A stretch of DNA of 64,000 nucleotides from an uncultured Peptostreptococcaceae bacterium (GTDB lineage: Bacteria > Bacillota > Clostridia > Peptostreptococcales > Acidaminobacteraceae), in NCBI GenBank assembly GCA_964404895.1, contig CAYOLV010000003.1, positions 252,561-316,560 of the forward strand, written 5' to 3'. The number at the start of each line of letters is the position of its first letter. Within the stretch, counting starts at the first letter, position 1. The notes beneath the pieces were generated by a model. The model ran no database searches. It was given only the letters and a program-made list of their open reading frames with translations, and was not told where the DNA came from. Of this stretch, positions 24,865-32,580 are shown piece by piece. A program made the translations under genes and the position numbers.

Positions 24865-25890
24865 CTACTCCAGCATTTGTGACGGATTGTGGGACAATAT
24901 CAAATCTAAAAACACCACCGCCGCCATGGCTTCTACCACTGGCAATCCCCGAATCCCTATACAGGGGTCGTGTCTCCCATCAATCTGAATTGTGACAGGA
25001 TTTCCCTCTTGATCGATGGTCTGTTGCGGCATTTTAATGGAAGCCGTGGGTTTGAACACCGTTTGGAACTTAATCGGCGTCCCGATGGTGATGCCTCCCA
25101 GAACCCCTCCATTATGATGGCTGGTGGTTTGGACTTTTCCATTCTCTATCACAAAAGGGTCATTGGCCTCTGAACCCTTCATTTTTCCCAGTTCAAAACC
25201 CGTTCCGAATGAGACGCCTTTCACACCGGGTATGGCAAATAGGGCTTTTGCTAATATGCCTTCCAAACTGTCAAAGTCGGGCCCACAAAATCCTGCAGGT
25301 ATGCCCGTTACAAGGGTTTCAACAACAGCCCCTACTGAGTCCCCAGAAGCTTTCACCTTTTCTAGTAGCGTTTCCAGTTCCAAGTCCCCTATTTGGCAAT
25401 TTTCCAAATCTCCTACTCGTAAAAACCGCGAGCTGATTCCTATACCCTTTTCTTCCAAGACTTGCTTACACAAAGCCCCTGCAAAAACCATGGGAGCAGT
25501 CAGCCGACCTGAAAATTGTCCACTGCCCCGAGAGTCCCAGTGGGTTCCATATTTTACAAAGGCGCTATAATCCACGTGAGAAGGTCTAAAAATGCCTTTT
25601 AGGGCATCATAGTCCTTGCTCTTTTGTCCTTTGTTTTCAATCATGCCACAGATAGGTGCCCCAGTGGTCTTGTTATTGAGCAAACCGCTGACCATGCGAA
25701 CTTGATCGGTTTCTTGTCTCTCAGTGACCCCTTTTTGCCCGCCAGGGCGTCTTCTTTCCATTTCCCTTGCCAATGCGTCTAAATCAATTTCAACCCCTGC
25801 TGGGAAACCGTTGATGACCATGCCTATGGCTTCTCCATGAGACTCCCCGAACAGGGCAAGTTCAAGCTGTGCCCCTTTAAAGTTTCCCAT
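24865..25890 (-). CDS. aroC: chorismate synthase
   Basis: MGNFKGAQLELALFGESHGEAIG N-terminus and GRHDPCIG motif. Start set to ATG 25890 (GGGAGGA RBS); the track ORF runs a further 50 codons upstream through the aroA tail. Confidence 0.9.
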   Translation of the reverse strand: MGNFKGAQLELALFGESHGEAIGMVINGFPAGVEIDLDALAREMERRRPGGQKGVTERQETDQVRMVSGLLNNKTTGAPICGMIENKGQKSKDYDALKGIFRPSHVDYSAFVKYGTHWDSRGSGQFSGRLTAPMVFAGALCKQVLEEKGIGISSRFLRVGDLENCQIGDLELETLLEKVKASGDSVGAVVETLVTGIPAGFCGPDFDSLEGILAKALFAIPGVKGVSFGTGFELGKMKGSEANDPFVIENGKVQTTSHHNGGVLGGITIGTPIKFQTVFKPTASIKMPQQTIDQEGNPVTIQIDGRHDPCIGIRGLPVVEAMAAVVFLDLILSHNPSQMLE

Positions 25891-27298
25891 GACCTTGTCC
25901 TCCCAGTTGTTCAAGGTGGCTTTGTCCTCCCACCGTCTCCCCGTGAACCCGATTTCCCGTGCACTCCCCGTGAACCTGACCGCCAAGTTGAGCAAAGTCG
26001 GCAAAGAATTTTGGGTAAGACTTGTTGATGGCTTCTCCACCTTCTATGACTACGGGGTGATCACATCTAAGTGCTGCCACAGATGCCGCCATGACGATTC
26101 TATGATCTCCGCAACCTTCGACAAAGCCTCCAAGCAGTTGTTCCTTCCCTTCAATGACCATGCCGTTTTCTGTTTCCCATACGTCAGCTCCCAGATTTTC
26201 CAGCAAACTGACGGTACTCTTAATACGGTCTGACTCTTTGATCCGCAATCTGCCCCCGTTGACAATCTCCGTTCTGCCTTGACTTACACTGGCCAAAACC
26301 GCTAAGATGGGGATAATGTCGGGACATTGTCTGGCATCAATAATCGTTCCTTTGGTTTTAGACGGGTGTACGACAACACCCTCTTCGACTCTTTCAATTT
26401 TTCCACCCATGGCTTCCACAGTTTCCAGAATTCTTCGGTCTGCCTGCTGTGAACCCCTTTTCAGATTGGAACAAGTCACCCTTTCACTGCCGATCAGCCC
26501 TGCCACTATGAAAAAGGCGGCTTGGGAGTAGTCTCCTTCTACAGTGCTGGTTTCTGGCTTAAAGCTTTGAAGACCCTTTACGCTGTAAGTTTTCTCATCC
26601 GTTTTGACGATGTTTATGCCGTGGTTTTCAAGGACTTCGAGGGTCAATGCCACATAATCTTCAGACTCCAAATGACCTTCTATGACAATTTGAGAATCTT
26701 CTCTAAGCAGAGGCAGCGCCATCATCAGCCCAGAAAGGTATTGTGAACTTTCCCCTCCTGTCAGCCTGTAAGTCCCTGATTTCAAAGTGTCCGAAGTCAC
26801 CAACGGCAATGCTTTATTGTAGTCATAAGTCATGCCCAACTGGTCAAAGTTTCGCAAGTACTCTGTGAGAGGTCGCTTGGGCAGTCCGCCTTCCCCTTCA
26901 AACCGTTTTTCTCCTGACAAGAGCATGCCAATGGGGATAGTGAACCGCAAAGTGGAACCTGATTCGCCGCAATGAAAGTGGTAGGACTGGGTGGATTTCT
27001 CTCCCCTCTGAAAATGCGCAGAAGTTTCGCCTTTTATTTGCGCCTTTTCATCCTTTATATCTATCTTCGCACCTTTAATATGAACCGTTGTGCCTTCCCT
27101 AACTACCTGTGCCCCCAGAACTTTCACGGCTCTCAGGGTCGCCTCTACATCCTCCGAGGTCTGCACTTTATGAATGGTGCTGATCCCTTCGGAAAGCGCC
27201 GCGCACAACAAGTGCCTGTGGCTCATGCTTTTAGAAGATGGAATTTCGATACACCCGCTAAGGGTACTTCCCGTTACGCTAACTCGTCTCATGCCCAT
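25877..27298 (-). CDS. aroA: 3-phosphoshikimate 1-carboxyvinyltransferase (EPSP synthase) with a repetitive C-terminal extension
   Basis: SKSMSHRHLL, GESGSTLRF and LRIKESDRI motifs. The usual end (...YPKFFADFAQLGG) is followed by ~35 extra residues from the 27-nt repeat. Overlaps the aroC start by 14 nt. Confidence 0.9.
   Translation of the reverse strand: MGMRRVSVTGSTLSGCIEIPSSKSMSHRHLLCAALSEGISTIHKVQTSEDVEATLRAVKVLGAQVVREGTTVHIKGAKIDIKDEKAQIKGETSAHFQRGEKSTQSYHFHCGESGSTLRFTIPIGMLLSGEKRFEGEGGLPKRPLTEYLRNFDQLGMTYDYNKALPLVTSDTLKSGTYRLTGGESSQYLSGLMMALPLLREDSQIVIEGHLESEDYVALTLEVLENHGINIVKTDEKTYSVKGLQSFKPETSTVEGDYSQAAFFIVAGLIGSERVTCSNLKRGSQQADRRILETVEAMGGKIERVEEGVVVHPSKTKGTIIDARQCPDIIPILAVLASVSQGRTEIVNGGRLRIKESDRIKSTVSLLENLGADVWETENGMVIEGKEQLLGGFVEGCGDHRIVMAASVAALRCDHPVVIEGGEAINKSYPKFFADFAQLGGQVHGECTGNRVHGETVGGQSHLEQLGGQGHGKL
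25895..25976 (-). repeat. degenerate tandem 27-nt (9-codon) repeat at the aroA 3' end / aroC start
   Basis: TTGTCCTCCCA occurs at 25895-25905 and 25922-25932. CTCCCCGTGAACC occurs at 25937-25949 and 25964-25976. Both pairs are exactly 27 nt apart and encode GGQVHGECT/GNRVHGETV/GGQSHLEQL/GGQGHGKL. Confidence 0.7.
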
Positions 27299-28402: not shown

Positions 28403-29299
28403 TCAAAGTATCATTTCATTTCGTTTTCGTTTGGTTTGGCGTAAAAAAGTTTCAAGTCCTTCAAAATCGTTTTGGATTAACAATTGTTTCACATGGAACA
28501 ACTGCTTTTCGTATGCCTCCATCGCTTCCAAAAGGTGATTCTTGTTGTAAAAACAAATATCTTTCCAGATTTTTTCGTTACCCCCTGCAATTCGAGTCAT
28601 ATCTTTGAAGCCCCCTGCGATATAGGGTTTTAAGTTCTCTAATGACTGTTCTTCGCCCTCTGTTGCCGCTGACATGAGAAGTGCGGCGCTAATGTGGGGC
28701 AAGTGACTGGTTCTGGCTACAAGGGCGTCATGTCGATGAGGATCCACCCACTGGGTCACACTTCCTATTTCTTGTATCAAATTTTCCAGCGCCTCTTTGG
28801 TGTCTGGGTCTAAGTCGCCCCCTTGAGTCAGAAAAAATGTAGCCCCTTGGTAAAGGTCTTTTCGACCGTGAATGCCGCCGCTTTTTTCTGAACCGCACAT
28901 GGGGTGACCGCCTACCCACTTGATATGCTTGTCCTTAGGCAGATGGGCTTCCATTATGGGGTTGAAGAACCCTTTCACACTGCCTAAGTCCATGAGTAGG
29001 GCATTTTCTTTTACGGCTGGAGCAATGGCCTTAATCAAGGTTTCATAAGCACCTAGAGGACAAGCCAGTATAATTAAGTCTGCTTCTTTGACTGCTGATT
29101 CAGGACTCAAGTGTTTTTCCATTTCTGGTAAATCAGTTCCCACTGGGTCGTAGGTCGTAATTTGGCGTTTTTCCTTAGGATTTTGCTCCTTATCCGCATC
29201 TGCTAAGGCTAACCCAAAGGAACTGCCCATCAGTCCAAGTCCTAGAATAGCAATCTTTCTAAAGGGACCATTGGCTTCGTTTTTCATGTTGGTCAGCAC
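28403..29299 (-). CDS. tyrA: prephenate dehydrogenase
   Basis: Rossmann [14 protein letters not shown] and catalytic [12 protein letters not shown] motif. The start could be an internal ATG a few codons downstream. Confidence 0.85.
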
Positions 29300-30128
29300 C
29301 CCTTCCTAAAATGTGGTGAATACTTTCCAGTTCTGTCATAAGAGTGGAGAATTTTTTAGGTTTCAAGGATTGGGGTCCGTCCGAAAGGGCTTCTGATGGG
29401 TTGTTGTGAACTTCTATCATTAACCCGTCTGCCCCTATGGCTACGGCTGCTCTTGAAAGGGGGCCTACCATTTCCCATTTCCCAGTGGCATGGCTTGGAT
29501 CGATGATGATAGGCAGGTGTGAAAGTTCTTTCACTGCGGTGACTACATTGAGGTCTAGAGTATTTCTCATGTGAGTCTCGAAGGTGCGAATACCTCTTTC
29601 GCAGAGAATGACTTTCTCGTTGCCGCTTGCCATAATGTACTCTGCCGCCATGAGGAATTCTTCTAGGGTTGCAGACATGCCTCTTTTCAACATGACGGGT
29701 TTGTTCAGTTTCCCTACTCTTTTCAGTAGTGAGAAGTTTTGCATGTTGCGAGCTCCAATTTGAATAATGTCTGCGTAAGCGTCAATCAAATCTAAGTCCT
29801 CAGATGCCATTAACTCTGTGACTACTGGCATTTTGTATCGTTCCCCTGCCTGTTTCAAAAGAATGAGTCCTTCTTCGCCCATCCCTTGGAAAGCGTAAGG
29901 CGATGTTCTTGGCTTGAAAGCGCCTCCTCTGAGAATATTGGCGCCTGCGGCTTTCACCGACGCGGCAATGGTCATGATTTGCAGTTCGCTTTCTACGGCG
30001 CAAGGGCCTGCCATAACGACTAAGCTTCCACCGCCTATGGTCACATCTTTGACTCTGACAATGCTGTTTTCCTCTGGATTGGTTTTGGCTACTAAGGGAC
30101 ATGCTTTGGTGATGGTTTCTAAATTCAT
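29259..30128 (-). CDS. aroF: 3-deoxy-7-phosphoheptulonate (DAHP) synthase, type I-beta
   Basis: [20 protein letters not shown] and [10 protein letters not shown] motifs. Start ATG 30128 with AGGAGG RBS (30134-30139). The 3' end overlaps tyrA. Confidence 0.88.
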
Positions 30129-30160
30129 AAGATCGCCTCCTGATGTTTGTGGGGTGTTAG

Positions 30161-30211
30161 TTGAGACAAAAAACAAAGTAAGACGCTCTCGAGAGGAGAG
30201 CGTCTTACTTT
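30161..30211 (-). terminator. intrinsic terminator inside the aro operon leader (attenuator terminator)
   Basis: Perfect 16-bp stem (30175-30190 pairs with 30196-30211, loop 5 nt) followed on the minus strand by TTTGTTTTTTGT. Sits between the leader ORF stop and the aroF RBS. Confidence 0.8.
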
Positions 30212-30248
30212 AATCGTCTATGGTTTAATCCAAATTGATTTCACTGGG

Positions 30249-30410
30249 CTATAACATGTACCCCAGCGGTAAGGTTCTTCTTCGATTCAGTGTCAGATGA
30301 AATTTTCTGCATCTAAAGTAGCCAACGCTAAAATAATAATAGCCTTGGAAGAAGAAGAAAAAGTTATTCAATTGTCGGCTGTTACCTTTTAAGTCCAACA
30401 ATTTATTCAT
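30249..30410 (-). CDS. candidate Phe/Tyr-rich leader peptide of the aro operon (53 aa; not in ORF track)
   Basis: Hand translation: MNKLLDLKGNSRQLNNFFFFFQGYYYFSVGYFRCRKFHLTLNRRRTLPLGYML, stop TAG 30249-30251. GAGGTG RBS at 30417-30422, 6 nt before ATG 30410. Confidence 0.6.
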   Translation of the reverse strand: MNKLLDLKGNSRQLNNFFFFFQGYYYFSVGYFRCRKFHLTLNRRRTLPLGYML

Positions 30411-30473
30411 CGGGTACACCTCATCAAATGTTTTTGGTTTTGTTTTCGTGTTTGGTTCTTTTAGGTTTTTACC

Positions 30474-30503
30474 ACTATACTAAAAAAGCCTGACAAAGGT
30501 CAA
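30474..30503 (-). promoter_or_regulatory. candidate sigmaA promoter of the aro operon leader
   Basis: Minus strand: TTGACC (30498-30503), 18-nt spacer, TATAGT (30474-30479). The -35 lies inside the aroE terminator hairpin. Confidence 0.5.
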
Positions 30504-30515
30504 GGCTTTTTTTTT
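30482..30515 (-). terminator. rho-independent terminator after aroE
   Basis: Minus strand reads AAGCCTTGAC-cttt-GTCAGGCTT (one bulged T) followed by TTTTTT. Lies ~40 nt after the aroE stop. Confidence 0.7.
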
Positions 30516-30551
30516 GAAAATTTAGAGATTTATTTGAATTTTCTTGCAAAA

Positions 30552-31469
30552 TTATTTGAATAAACCTTCCGTTTCAAAAAGAAGGTGCTTGGTGCCTTCA
30601 AGGTCAATCTCTCGTTCTTCCCAAAGTTGTTCACTAAGCAAAGCTTGAAAAATCAACATTTCCACTCCATAAATACACTTTGCGCCCATACCTCTGGCAC
30701 GTCTTAAAAAAAGAGTCTCATGAGGTTTATACACAATATCACAAAAAATTGTATTTTTATTAAATAGTTCAGGATTGATGGGTGTATGCTCTGTATCTGG
30801 CAGCATGCCCACACTGGTAGTATTGATGACGAGATTGTAGTCACTGCACGCGGGGGTCAGGTTATCAGCCGACAACGGGTCTGCCATCATACCTTCTGTT
30901 AAATCGTCTTCTCGTTGGCGAACCCATGGATTATCCTCGGTACCGTACCCCTGGCTTTCAATGTTGTAAAGTTCCCGAACTGCAGCTGACAATTCTGAAG
31001 CACGTGCCTTGGTTCTGTTGAACACGTCTAACCTAGCAACCTCTGCCATGGATAGGGCATGGACAATGCCTTTTGCCGCTCCACCAGCCCCTAATATGAG
31101 TACTTTTAAACCTTTTGGCTCAACTTCATGATATTTTAAAGACGTCAAGAACCCCAGCCCGTCTGTGTTATAACCTTTTTTGATGCCATTTTTGACCACG
31201 ACGGTATTTACCGCCCCCATTTTCTCAGCGAGAGGATCCACTTCGTCTAAAAAGGCCATGACGGACTCTTTGTGTGGAATGGTGATGTTAAAGCCATTGT
31301 ACCCTTTTAGAATAAAAGCCTCCAAGGCTTCACCCAATTCCTCGGGCGAAACCTCAAAGGCTTCATATGTGGCTTCAATATCGTTGTATGCAAAACTCGT
31401 CCGATGAATCAGTGGGGACTTTGAACCTGTCACGGGTGCGCCAATTAGCGCATATTGACCTCTAGACAT
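30552..31469 (-). CDS. aroE: shikimate dehydrogenase
   Basis: SKSPLIH, YNTDGLGF and GAGGAAKG motifs. Contains an acidic insert (YGTEDNPWVRQREDDLTEGMMADPLSADNL) that I do not recall in typical AroE. Confidence 0.88.
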   Translation of the reverse strand: MSRGQYALIGAPVTGSKSPLIHRTSFAYNDIEATYEAFEVSPEELGEALEAFILKGYNGFNITIPHKESVMAFLDEVDPLAEKMGAVNTVVVKNGIKKGYNTDGLGFLTSLKYHEVEPKGLKVLILGAGGAAKGIVHALSMAEVARLDVFNRTKARASELSAAVRELYNIESQGYGTEDNPWVRQREDDLTEGMMADPLSADNLTPACSDYNLVINTTSVGMLPDTEHTPINPELFNKNTIFCDIVYKPHETLFLRRARGMGAKCIYGVEMLIFQALLSEQLWEEREIDLEGTKHLLFETEGLFK

Positions 31470-31472
31470 AGC

Positions 31473-32580
31473 CTACACCTCATTTTTGAATTTTAACCAC
31501 GCATTGATAAATTGGTCTATTTCCCCATCCATAACCGCTTGAACGTTTCCGCTTTCAGCGCCTGTACGGTGATCTTTGACCAGATTGTAAGGGTTGAAAA
31601 CATAGGAACGGATTTGGCTGCCCCATGTGATTTGTGAATAATCCCCTGCCAAGTCATCAATTTTTTCTTTATTTTCACGCTCTTTTAGCTCAATGAGCTT
31701 ACCTAAGAGCATTTTCATAGCTGTTGCTTTGTTGTTATGTTGAGAGCGCTCATTTTGACAACCTACCACAATTCCTGTGGGAATATGGGTAATTCGAATG
31801 GCACTGTCGGTCATGTTAATGTGCTGACCGCCTGCCCCTGAAGCTCTAAAGGTATCTATTCTCAGATCTTTTGGGTCGATTTCCACTTCCAAAGACTCAT
31901 CTAGCTCTGGCATGACATCTACTGAAGCAAAAGAAGTGTGTCGCTTGCCCGAAGAATCAAAGGGCGAAATTCGCACCAAGCGGTGCACCCCTTTTTCGCT
32001 TTTTAAAAATCCGTAGGCATTCTCGCCTTCAATCAGCAAGGAAACGTCTTTAATCCCTGCTTCTGAGTCCCGAATAATATCTAAAATACGGACTTTATAG
32101 CCTTTGGCTTCTGCCCAGCGGTGGTACATTCTGAAAATCATTTCTGCCCAGTCTTGAGCGTCCAGTCCTCCAGTTCCCGCATGAACGGACAACATGGCGT
32201 TATTCTTGTCATATTGTCCAGACAAAAGGGTTTCTAGCATTAATTTATCTATGGAATCTTCAAGGCTTTTGATGCCTGAAAGTATTTCGCCTTCCAAACT
32301 TTCTTCGCCCTCGTCGATGACCATGTGGGACAAGACTTCCAAATCTTCTAGTTGTCTGCAGAGTCCTTCAAATAACTCAATTCTATCTTTCAGACCTTTG
32401 GCGCGCTTTAATACTTTTTGCGCTTCCTCAGCGTCGTTCCAAAACTCATTTTGAAGGGATTTTTGTTCCAGTTCGTTGTACACCGATTTCATCCGATCGA
32501 TGTCAAAGTGAACCACCCAATTCTGTTAATTTCGCGCTCAATTCTTTCAGGTCACGCAGACCCTGTTCGATGGATAACAC
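31473..32580 (-). CDS. prfB: peptide chain release factor 2, requires programmed +1 frameshift
   Basis: Frame 0: GTG 32580 ... VLSIEQGLRDLKELSAKLTELGGSL then TGA (32503-32505). The +1 frame continues DIDRMKSVYNELEQK... to 31473. SPF (ISPFDSSG) and GGQ (SGAGGQHINMTDSA) motifs are present. The track shows only the 347-aa downstream part. Confidence 0.9.
32502..32518 (-). other. RF2 +1 frameshift site
   Basis: Minus strand reads GGGTGGTTCA CTT TGA C: an SD-like GGTGGT sits 3 nt before the slippery CTT, followed by in-frame TGA with C context. This is the canonical prfB autoregulatory site. Confidence 0.9.

Follow-up and report, generated by a model that had tools for sequence, protein, structure and literature searches.

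A leader with an upstream open reading frame (uORF) in front of aroF has been described before as the uORFC-13-1 motif, a prediction made from Acholeplasma laidlawii (Brewer et al. 2021, RNA Biol 18:2417, PMC8632094) that comprises 24 representatives, drawn from Acholeplasma and from environmental sequences without assignment. All of them stand before aroF and no other gene, directly ahead of an intrinsic terminator, and the conserved unit consists of the –35 and –10 hexamers, a ribosome-binding site (RBS), a start codon, a Phe-encoding U-run and one additional stem with covariation; its authors proposed that termination depends on how fast Phe is incorporated (PMC8632094). The present analysis concerns a Phe/Tyr-rich leader that precedes aroF, the first gene of an aromatic amino-acid operon, on the minus strand of a 64,000-nt stretch of DNA (the window; contig CAYOLV010000003.1). 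With a probability of roughly 0.7, we consider this leader to be a ribosome-mediated Phe/Tyr transcription attenuator of the operon. The SecA protein encoded in the window has its best named relatives (65–69% identity) in Helicovermis (H. profundi, 69%), Caminicella, Crassaminicella, Fusibacter and Geosporobacter, and the window, as judged from its sequence, belongs to an uncultured Clostridia lineage, not to Acholeplasma.

The window leader is like uORFC-13-1 in standing before aroF and directly before a terminator, with conserved –35 and –10 hexamers, RBS, start codon and Phe-encoding U-run, and in having an additional base-paired element with covariation; the mechanism proposed for the motif is also the one considered here, and its description agrees with the window in each of these points. 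The motif stems from Acholeplasma and environmental sequences whereas the window stems from Clostridia, and the two are compared here by the description of the motif, not by the published alignment. A tested case is the aroR leader peptide (Phe-Tyr-Phe) of Corynebacterium glutamicum, which attenuates an aroF-containing operon (Neshat 2014, as cited in PMC11802643); according to that account, read-through rises under Phe limitation, and Tyr supply is without effect. By its description there, aroR is an actinobacterial system with a short leader carrying a Phe-Tyr-Phe triplet, whereas in the window leader Tyr codons are as prominent as Phe codons. Premature termination has also been detected in the aroF 5′ untranslated region of Clostridioides difficile (PMC8237595). 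In view of the published uORFC-13-1 motif (PMC8632094) and of the control of aroF by aroR as outlined in PMC11802643, the initial annotation of this DNA overstated matters when it called a leader-peptide attenuator unusual in Firmicutes.

With the enterobacterial pheL-pheA and pheM-pheST leaders (RF01859), the window leader shares a run of Phe codons, regulatory codons in or beside a 1:2 pairing, and a terminator before the structural gene. The pheL and pheM leaders have 14–15 codons, a defined 2:3 antiterminator and a stop codon beside region 2, whereas the window leader has 53 codons, mixes Phe with Tyr, places these codons in a hairpin loop and offers only candidate antiterminators. The usual control of aromatic genes in Firmicutes is by T-box leaders (RF00230), which likewise form a 5′ leader ending in a terminator before an amino-acid gene and display codons in structured RNA; the window leader differs from them in its predicted translated ORF and in displaying codons that are multiple and interchangeable. 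The kind of mechanism is textbook and an aroF uORF motif is already published, so that the gain is incremental; what may be new is the size and spread of a long-leader family in Clostridia and Negativicutes, together with the display of its regulatory codons by a hairpin.

A Phe/Tyr-rich ORF lies between a promoter and a terminator upstream of aroF

The operon in the window runs aroF, tyrA, aroB, aroA, aroC and a gene for chorismate mutase-prephenate dehydratase (pheA), with secA, prfB and aroE upstream. The leader in front of aroF consists of the following elements (window positions; all on the minus strand).

30498..30503, minus: –35 hexamer TTGACC of the leader promoter (promoter scan; TTGAC invariant in 12/12 close loci, also where the upstream gene differs)
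30489..30504, minus: terminator of the upstream gene aroE, overlapping the –35 hexamer (scan; 6-bp stem, then CTTTTTTAGT)
30474..30479, minus: –10 hexamer TATAGT (promoter scan; TATAGT then G-TAAAAC kept in relatives)
30417..30422, minus: Shine-Dalgarno (SD) sequence GAGGTG of the leader ORF, 6 nt before its ATG at 30410 (sequence; SD and ATG kept in all relatives)
30249..30410, minus: leader ORF of 53 codons plus TAG (30251-30249), MNKLLDLKGNSRQLNNFFFFFQGYYYFSVGYFRCRKFHLTLNRRRTLPLGYML (sequence; in frame in all homologues)
30406..30411, minus: GAUGAA at the start codon, 5′ strand of the long-range helix P1 (RNAalifold consensus)
30370..30403, minus: hairpin A (AAUUGUUGG ... CCGACAAUU), within codons 3–14 (fold; not kept in the L086 clade)
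30348..30362, minus: five Phe codons, TTT TTC TTC TTC TTC (codons 17–21), also the 5′ strand of helix H1 (sequence; H1 pairing conserved)
30322..30348, minus: hairpin B, CCAAGGCU (30348-30341) pairing with AGCGUUGG (30329-30322), with an 11-nt loop of Tyr-Tyr-Tyr-Phe codons (covariation; core of covariance model R1)
30330..30341, minus: TAT TAT TAT TTT (codons 24–27) in the hairpin B loop, the three TAT codons at 30341-30333 (sequence)
30313..30329, minus: candidate antiterminator strand AT-a (AGCGUU...UACUUUAG), i.e., the hairpin B 3′ arm and the sequence flanking it (complementary to 30199-30213)
30296..30301, minus: UUCAUC (codons Phe37-His38), 3′ strand of P1 (RNAalifold consensus)
30275..30283, minus: GAAGAAGAA, 3′ strand of H1, complement of UUCUUCUUC (in the minimum free energy fold; pairing conserved)
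30269..30284, minus: candidate antiterminator strand AT-b (CGAAGAAGAACCUUAC), pairing with 30192-30208 in folds of the RNA 3′ of a stalled ribosome
30242..30268, minus: hairpin C, spanning the stop codon (fold; relatives carry a hairpin of different sequence in this position)
30174..30212, minus: intrinsic terminator hairpin of 17 bp with the 5-nt loop CUCUC (scan; stems covary in relatives)
30164..30173, minus: terminator U-tract, tail TTTTTTGTCT (scan)
30136..30140, minus: SD sequence GGAGG of aroF (sequence)
29259..30128, minus: aroF, DAHP synthase of 289 amino acids, ATG at 30128 (Pfam DAHP_synth_1; relatives with the same gene order)

The promoter (TTGACC-18-TATAGT, 30503-30474) matches the consensus at 10 of 12 positions in the scan. 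The promoter, the SD sequence, the 53-codon ORF and its Phe and Tyr runs all lie where the initial annotation had placed them; the listing of ORFs gives the same frame as 30249..30419, starting from a GTG inside the SD sequence. In one stretch of the leader peptide, 11 of 16 residues are Phe or Tyr, as had been noted before, and the two amino acids are those that the operon makes through tyrA and pheA. The aromatic ORF is not a chance product: frame 0 of the leader encodes 13 aromatic residues and has a single stop, while the other frames hold 6 and 3 aromatics and five stops each, and when the leader was shuffled 20,000 times with dinucleotides preserved, no shuffle gave an ATG-initiated ORF of at least 40 amino acids with at least 11 aromatics per stretch of 16 residues.

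The terminator hairpin that had been predicted after the ORF was recovered with a stem now counted as 17 bp (30212-30174), which begins 37 nt after the leader stop codon. Folding of the leader yielded a minimum free energy (MFE) of –90.8, compared with –62.8 ± 4.6 for shuffled sequences (z = –6.0), and the MFE structure holds both the terminator and the UUCUUCUUC:GAAGAAGAA helix (H1). The complement of the Phe run at 30283-30275, from which a pairing had been proposed, is thereby found in the predicted fold as well.

About 23 nt separate the end of the terminator tail from the aroF SD sequence, and a scan of the window for promoter-like sites revealed none between the terminator and aroF, the only one on this strand lying upstream of the leader. 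A similarly tight arrangement was seen in distant aroF loci, with the terminator stem ending only 29–42 nt before the aroF start codon in five of them (L001, L003, L026, L080 and L069; L numbers denote individual aroF loci) and the terminator lying about 20 nt before the aroF SD sequence in L096. Since the terminator is close to aroF and no promoter-like site lies in between, aroF must be transcribed through it, and the terminator is therefore a regulatory device and not the end of a separate gene.

At the other end of the leader, the CTTGACCTTTGTCAGG bases serve both the aroE terminator hairpin and the leader –35 hexamer (30489-30504), so that the sites where the upstream operon terminates and the leader initiates are physically nested. 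This overlap is kept in L081, L084, L087 and L095.

The leader family is widespread in Clostridia and Negativicutes

Eleven close loci were reached from AroF homologues with 90, 81, 80, 78, 77, 75 and 67% identity and then through their encoding contigs. The layout of promoter, ORF, terminator and aroF was present in all 11 (AroF 67–90% identical), the shared unit being TTGAC-N17/18-TATAGT, an SD sequence with ATG, an ORF of 41–54 codons, and a hairpin with U-tract that begins 29–71 nt after the ORF stop. Across the whole family, the leader ORF measures 41–60 codons. Its first ~12 and last ~15 codons are nearly unrelated between clades, yet the frame stays open, and L081 and L084 carry an in-frame 3-nt insertion. 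A terminator was present in 20 of the 20 family loci examined, with covarying stems.

A further 80 more distant aroF loci were scanned for aromatic uORFs. The same leader family was found in three Clostridia metagenome-assembled genomes (MAGs; L001–L003) and in Pelosinus, Phascolarctobacterium, Haloimpatiens and Oscillibacter, while an Oscillospiraceae MAG yielded a 16-codon variant of the aromatic uORF. A profile of the leader peptide matched 39 called proteins of 42–95 amino acids, all of those with a source name being called 'hypothetical protein'; among the sources are Pelosinus, Haloimpatiens, Crassaminicella thermophila and Clostridium grantii. In all genomic contexts examined, the leader ORF precedes a DAHP synthase gene; C. 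thermophila has two copies of the leader ORF, of which the one whose context was read (P0277) precedes such a gene. A conserved Phe/Tyr-rich ORF, whose occurrence the initial annotation had left to comparison with related genomes, is thus present in every relative fetched and extends to distant Clostridia and Negativicutes. Other routes were less productive: a scan of genome contigs with AroF gave only relatives of at most 68% identity, among which nhmmer showed no similarity to the leader, and metagenome scans by peptide profile and by a degenerate DNA pattern gave nothing usable.

The C. thermophila genome holds two paralogous aromatic leader ORFs (P0250 and P0277). At the P0277 locus (L096; CP042243.1, 1,040,100-1,048,243, with the leader at about 1,044,000-1,044,340), the order is leader, DAHP synthase gene, T-box and trpE-trpG-trpD, so probable leader-peptide control and T-box control are adjacent. 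C. thermophila is a cultured species suited to experiments; Haloimpatiens sp. FM7330 and Pelosinus are further cultured carriers.

In most close relatives, the stretch between terminator and aroF holds a conserved block (...TTGCAAC...ACTGTyAAAAAwyAyTwAATaTAGAATT...AAGGAGG; 2870-3000 in L085, also in L086–L090, L094 and L095) that is absent from the window and from L084. This block might serve as an additional promoter, as an operator or as another RNA element; inspection by eye gave no convincing –35/–10 pair in it. In L081, an insertion of ~250 nt (around 2720-2990) separates the leader terminator from aroF and is absent from the nearly identical L084; it holds two copies of CCCAGCGTGGCTGAGAAACAGCCCACGTGC, each a hairpin-forming repeat resembling repetitive extragenic palindromic (REP) elements.

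Aromatic codons and RNA stems are conserved together

The peptide consensus approximates [FY]x[FY][FY]x-x-G-[FYW][FY][FY]F-S-[VA]-[GS]-[FY]-[FL]-A-[WY]-x-K. At its aromatic positions, F, Y and W interchange by one or two base changes, often two (e.g., TTT to TAC), and an Arg codon of the ORF changes from CGG to AGA between relatives. The conserved non-aromatic residues (Q/L/W-G ... S-V/A-G) coincide with the arms of hairpin B. In other clades these arms read CUGGAGCU/AGCUUCGG, CUUGGGCU/AGCGCAGG, CUGGGGCU/AGCGUCAG and further variants, with the pairing retained while the encoded residues vary (Q/L/W, V/A/F, G/S).

In an alignment of 14 sequences, hairpin B was paired in 97.9% of cells, with 3 of 7 pairs compensatory, compared with 10–45% in slid controls, and its covariation was reached by 0/500 shuffles. 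The codons in its loop are F, Y or W throughout in the window and 16 anchored homologues; some other family members have N, S or H among them. For H1, 79.6% of cells were paired in relatives (45–60% in slid controls) and the covariation score was likewise reached by none of 500 shuffles, so the 1:2-type pairing of Phe run and purine run put forward in the initial annotation is retained across relatives. The long-range helix P1, which joins the start-codon region and codons 37–38 in the RNAalifold consensus, has equivalents built from different sequence in L091 (MFE fold) and, by eye, in L002. That the conserved residues are limited to the aromatic codons and the stem arms is the signature of a leader peptide, and the sequence pattern points to selection for an RNA stem and for aromatic codons in a single frame rather than for a protein fold.

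In the Acholeplasmataceae loci L021 and L023, the uORF has 13 codons (MIHLNSYYYFYHM and MFQTFAYYYYYQM; …YYYFY… and …YYYYY…) and no equivalent of hairpin B, and the covariance model R1, built on the hairpin B family, gave no match in either locus at E ≤ 1. Here (2100-2310 in L021, 2090-2320 in L023), two hairpin/U-tract elements in succession lie between the Tyr-rich uORF and aroF, and AAGGAATG is the complement of the 3′ arm in the first of these hairpins. By its sequence, this looks like a differently wired attenuator for aroF.

Known RNA and protein families do not account for the leader

Across the 64-kb window, searches against Rfam 15 gave no match that reached the gathering score, and within 30080-30580 they gave nothing meaningful at E ≤ 10. 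For the T-box (RF00230) in particular, the window showed no match, whether at the gathering score or at E ≤ 10, and no T-box sequence stands ahead of the terminator. This negative result is informative because the same search detected, as a positive control, the T-box before trpE in the related Crassaminicella thermophila locus (103.7 bits). The Phe_leader model (RF01859), with a gathering score of 55, scored 16.0 bits on the opposite strand. By these searches, the T-box, the Phe leader and all other Rfam families are ruled out for the leader, and the riboswitch that the initial annotation had named as a competing explanation did not appear. Searches of the leader peptide against Pfam and NCBIfam gave no match, which rules out a known protein family for it.

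Proposed course of attenuation

On the observed elements, i.e., the ORF, its codon bias, H1, hairpin B, the terminator, their conservation and the lack of a promoter-like site after the terminator, we infer a scheme in which translation of the leader, ribosome stalling, an antiterminator and a response to amino-acid supply would be linked as follows. Transcription would start from the promoter at 30503-30474, and a ribosome would load at GAGGUG/AUG and translate the 53-codon leader. When Phe- and Tyr-tRNA are plentiful, the ribosome would reach the stop codon, which lies 37 nt ahead of the terminator stem; in the wake of the ribosome, H1 would again join the Phe run to the purine run, hairpin B would re-form, the 17-bp terminator would fold, and the transcript would end before aroF. 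When Phe or Tyr is scarce, the ribosome would stall at codons 17–21 (Phe) or 24–27 (Tyr/Phe) and keep H1 and hairpin B open. The strand thus freed, either AT-a (the hairpin B 3′ arm and flank) or AT-b (the purine run and CCUUAC), could then pair with the 5′ arm of the terminator, so that the polymerase would read through into aroF-tyrA-aroB-aroA-aroC-pheA. P1, between the start-codon region and codons 37–38, may limit re-initiation.

Of the attenuator architecture in the initial annotation, the leader ORF, its regulatory codons, the 1:2 pairing, the terminator and their conservation have stood, as has the match between the products of the operon (Tyr and Phe, via tyrA and pheA) and the residues enriched in the peptide; the antiterminator was not established.

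Candidate antiterminators and points against attenuation

Two candidates for the antiterminator (2:3) pairing, which could not be made out by eye before, emerged in the window. AT-a forms 14 bp with 30199-30213 (AGCGUU/GACGCU plus UACUUUAG/UUAAAGUA; –13.5 kcal/mol, the next best site reaching –7.1), and its pairs hold in 71% of cells across relatives, compared with 26–60% in slid controls. As modelled, AT-a would give a scheme with hairpin B as 1:2, followed by 2:3 and 3:4. When only the RNA 3′ of a stalled ribosome was folded, the main partner of the terminator arm was AT-a with the A site on codons 18–23 and AT-b (purine run plus CCUUAC) for codons 16–17 and 24–40, while the arm was mostly free once the ribosome had passed codon 43.

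Several observations weigh against attenuation as proposed. The best complement of the terminator arm within the leader is no better than for shuffled arms (–13.5 in the window vs. –13.8 ± 2.5); AT-a against shuffled targets gave p = 0.08 in the window and a family mean z of +0.2, i.e., no signal; and the register of AT-b is not conserved in relatives. AT-a therefore does not pass as a demonstrated antiterminator, failing the shuffled-target test despite its 14 bp and 71% pairing, and AT-b in the window register was rejected. Equilibrium folding of the full transcript with a ribosome footprint never displaced the terminator, with a probability close to zero for AT-a except when the RNA 5′ of the ribosome was omitted, and across the family the terminator arm was paired no more in 'stalled' than in 'free' models. 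Equilibrium footprint folding is uninformative in this respect, since a partner for the terminator arm turned up in every case and the full transcript invariably settled on the terminator. Moreover, the ORF of 41–60 codons is 3–4 times as long as a classical leader and runs on for 26 codons beyond the regulatory codons. Finally, most close relatives have 130–300 nt, including the conserved block, between terminator and aroF, and such loci could hold another promoter or a further control element.

In 17 clade representatives taken together, the final third of the ORF was complementary to the 5′ arm and loop of the terminator beyond shuffles (mean z –0.75; t-test p 0.03; Fisher 0.003), with unbroken matches of 8–9 bp in L086, L026 and L096 (RNAduplex), those in L026 and L096 explaining the conserved 'SNE' codons. 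This modest family-wide signal in the sequences would fit the classical arrangement, in which a ribosome at the end of the ORF masks region 2; in the window itself the signal is absent (z = +1.6), which also counts against the proposed attenuation there. Overall, an antiterminator in the window is likely, with AT-a and AT-b as candidates that do not rise above shuffled controls.

Alternative explanations

The lack of a clear antiterminator, the 26 extra codons and the strongly conserved core leave a small chance for a nascent-peptide or RNA-binding sensor. In the former case, the core G-[YF]-[YF]-F-S-[VA]-G-[YF]-[FL] would act in the ribosome tunnel as an arrest peptide of the TnaC type, stalling translation and setting the choice of terminator independently of tRNA charging, possibly together with a free aromatic amino acid. 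An ORF far longer than codon counting requires, a design for which no simple antiterminator accounts, and a core that is unusually well conserved at the peptide level over wide distances would all suit such a sensor. We nevertheless regard it as unlikely: the conserved non-aromatic residues are the hairpin B arms and change amino acid as the stem covaries, the free exchange of F, Y and W suits codon sensing better than a specific tunnel contact, and arrest at a high amino-acid level would have the wrong sign for a biosynthetic operon unless the wiring were inverted. The more specific proposal, that the extended core G-[YF]-[YF]-F-S-[VA]-G-[YF]-[FL]-A-[WY]-x-K together with the codon-displaying hairpin constitutes a nascent-peptide sensor of aromatic amino-acid status, is quite improbable. 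If it were true, the leader would represent a new class of arrest peptide, widespread in Clostridia and Negativicutes and governing entry into the shikimate pathway. The RNA-binding case, in which the fold of P1, H1 and hairpin B would itself sense a protein, an uncharged tRNA or a small molecule by binding it and thereby govern terminator formation, with the ORF secondary, appears very improbable to us. The leader is strongly structured (z = –6), and its best-conserved element, hairpin B, covaries and holds aromatic codons in its loop; against this, the SD sequence, ATG and open frame are kept in every member despite divergence, with indels in frame, and the letters of the loop vary yet remain aromatic codons in that one frame (17 anchored loci). 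The F/Y exchange in the loop further argues against a single tRNA anticodon as the ligand, and no T-box signature is present.

The calling of 39 homologues of 42–95 amino acids as 'hypothetical protein' and the strong terminator after the ORF could also be read as signs of a separate gene for a small protein, equipped with a promoter and a terminator of its own. Its linkage to aroF would then be functional (e.g., a peptide acting on DAHP synthase) and not attenuating, and aroF would depend on leaky read-through or, in relatives, on a dedicated aroF promoter, for which the 130–300 nt with a conserved block before aroF in many close relatives would leave space. The N- and C-terminal thirds of the peptide are, however, unconserved even among close relatives, no Pfam or NCBIfam family matches it, and the window and several distant loci (29–42 nt) offer neither room nor signal for a promoter after the terminator. 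A 17-bp terminator would on this reading silence an essential pathway. On balance, a separate small-protein gene is a rather improbable explanation.

Neighbouring genes

In prfB (window 32500-32580, minus strand), a classical programmed +1 frameshift site (...GGT GGT TCA CTT TGA C...) is present, with a short upstream frame from near 32578; owing to this frameshift, the long frame of release factor 2 (RF2) is listed only from 32516. The aroA ORF measures 473 amino acids, compared with 418–424 in four relatives (L081, L082, L084 and L091), and ends in a Gly/His-rich, repeat-like C-terminal tail (…GQVHGECTGNRVHGETVGGQSHLEQLGGQGHGKL; window 25877-26040, minus strand) that overlaps the 5′ extension of the aroC ORF by ~160 nt. 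This tail is either a real extension or a frame artefact, and translation of aroC probably begins at the internal ATG (MGNFKGAQ…).

Significance of the leader family

Reading these ORFs as leaders explains dozens of proteins of 42–95 amino acids that were called 'hypothetical protein'. If attenuation operates as proposed, the unusual build of the family, with a leader of 41–60 codons and regulatory codons in the loop of a covarying hairpin, could show how the position of a ribosome is read out when the stop codon is distant from the codons that sense. In many Clostridia and Negativicutes, control of DAHP synthase, the entry point to the aromatic amino acids, would then lie with a translated leader and not with a T-box or TRAP, which would fill a gap in the regulatory maps of these bacteria.

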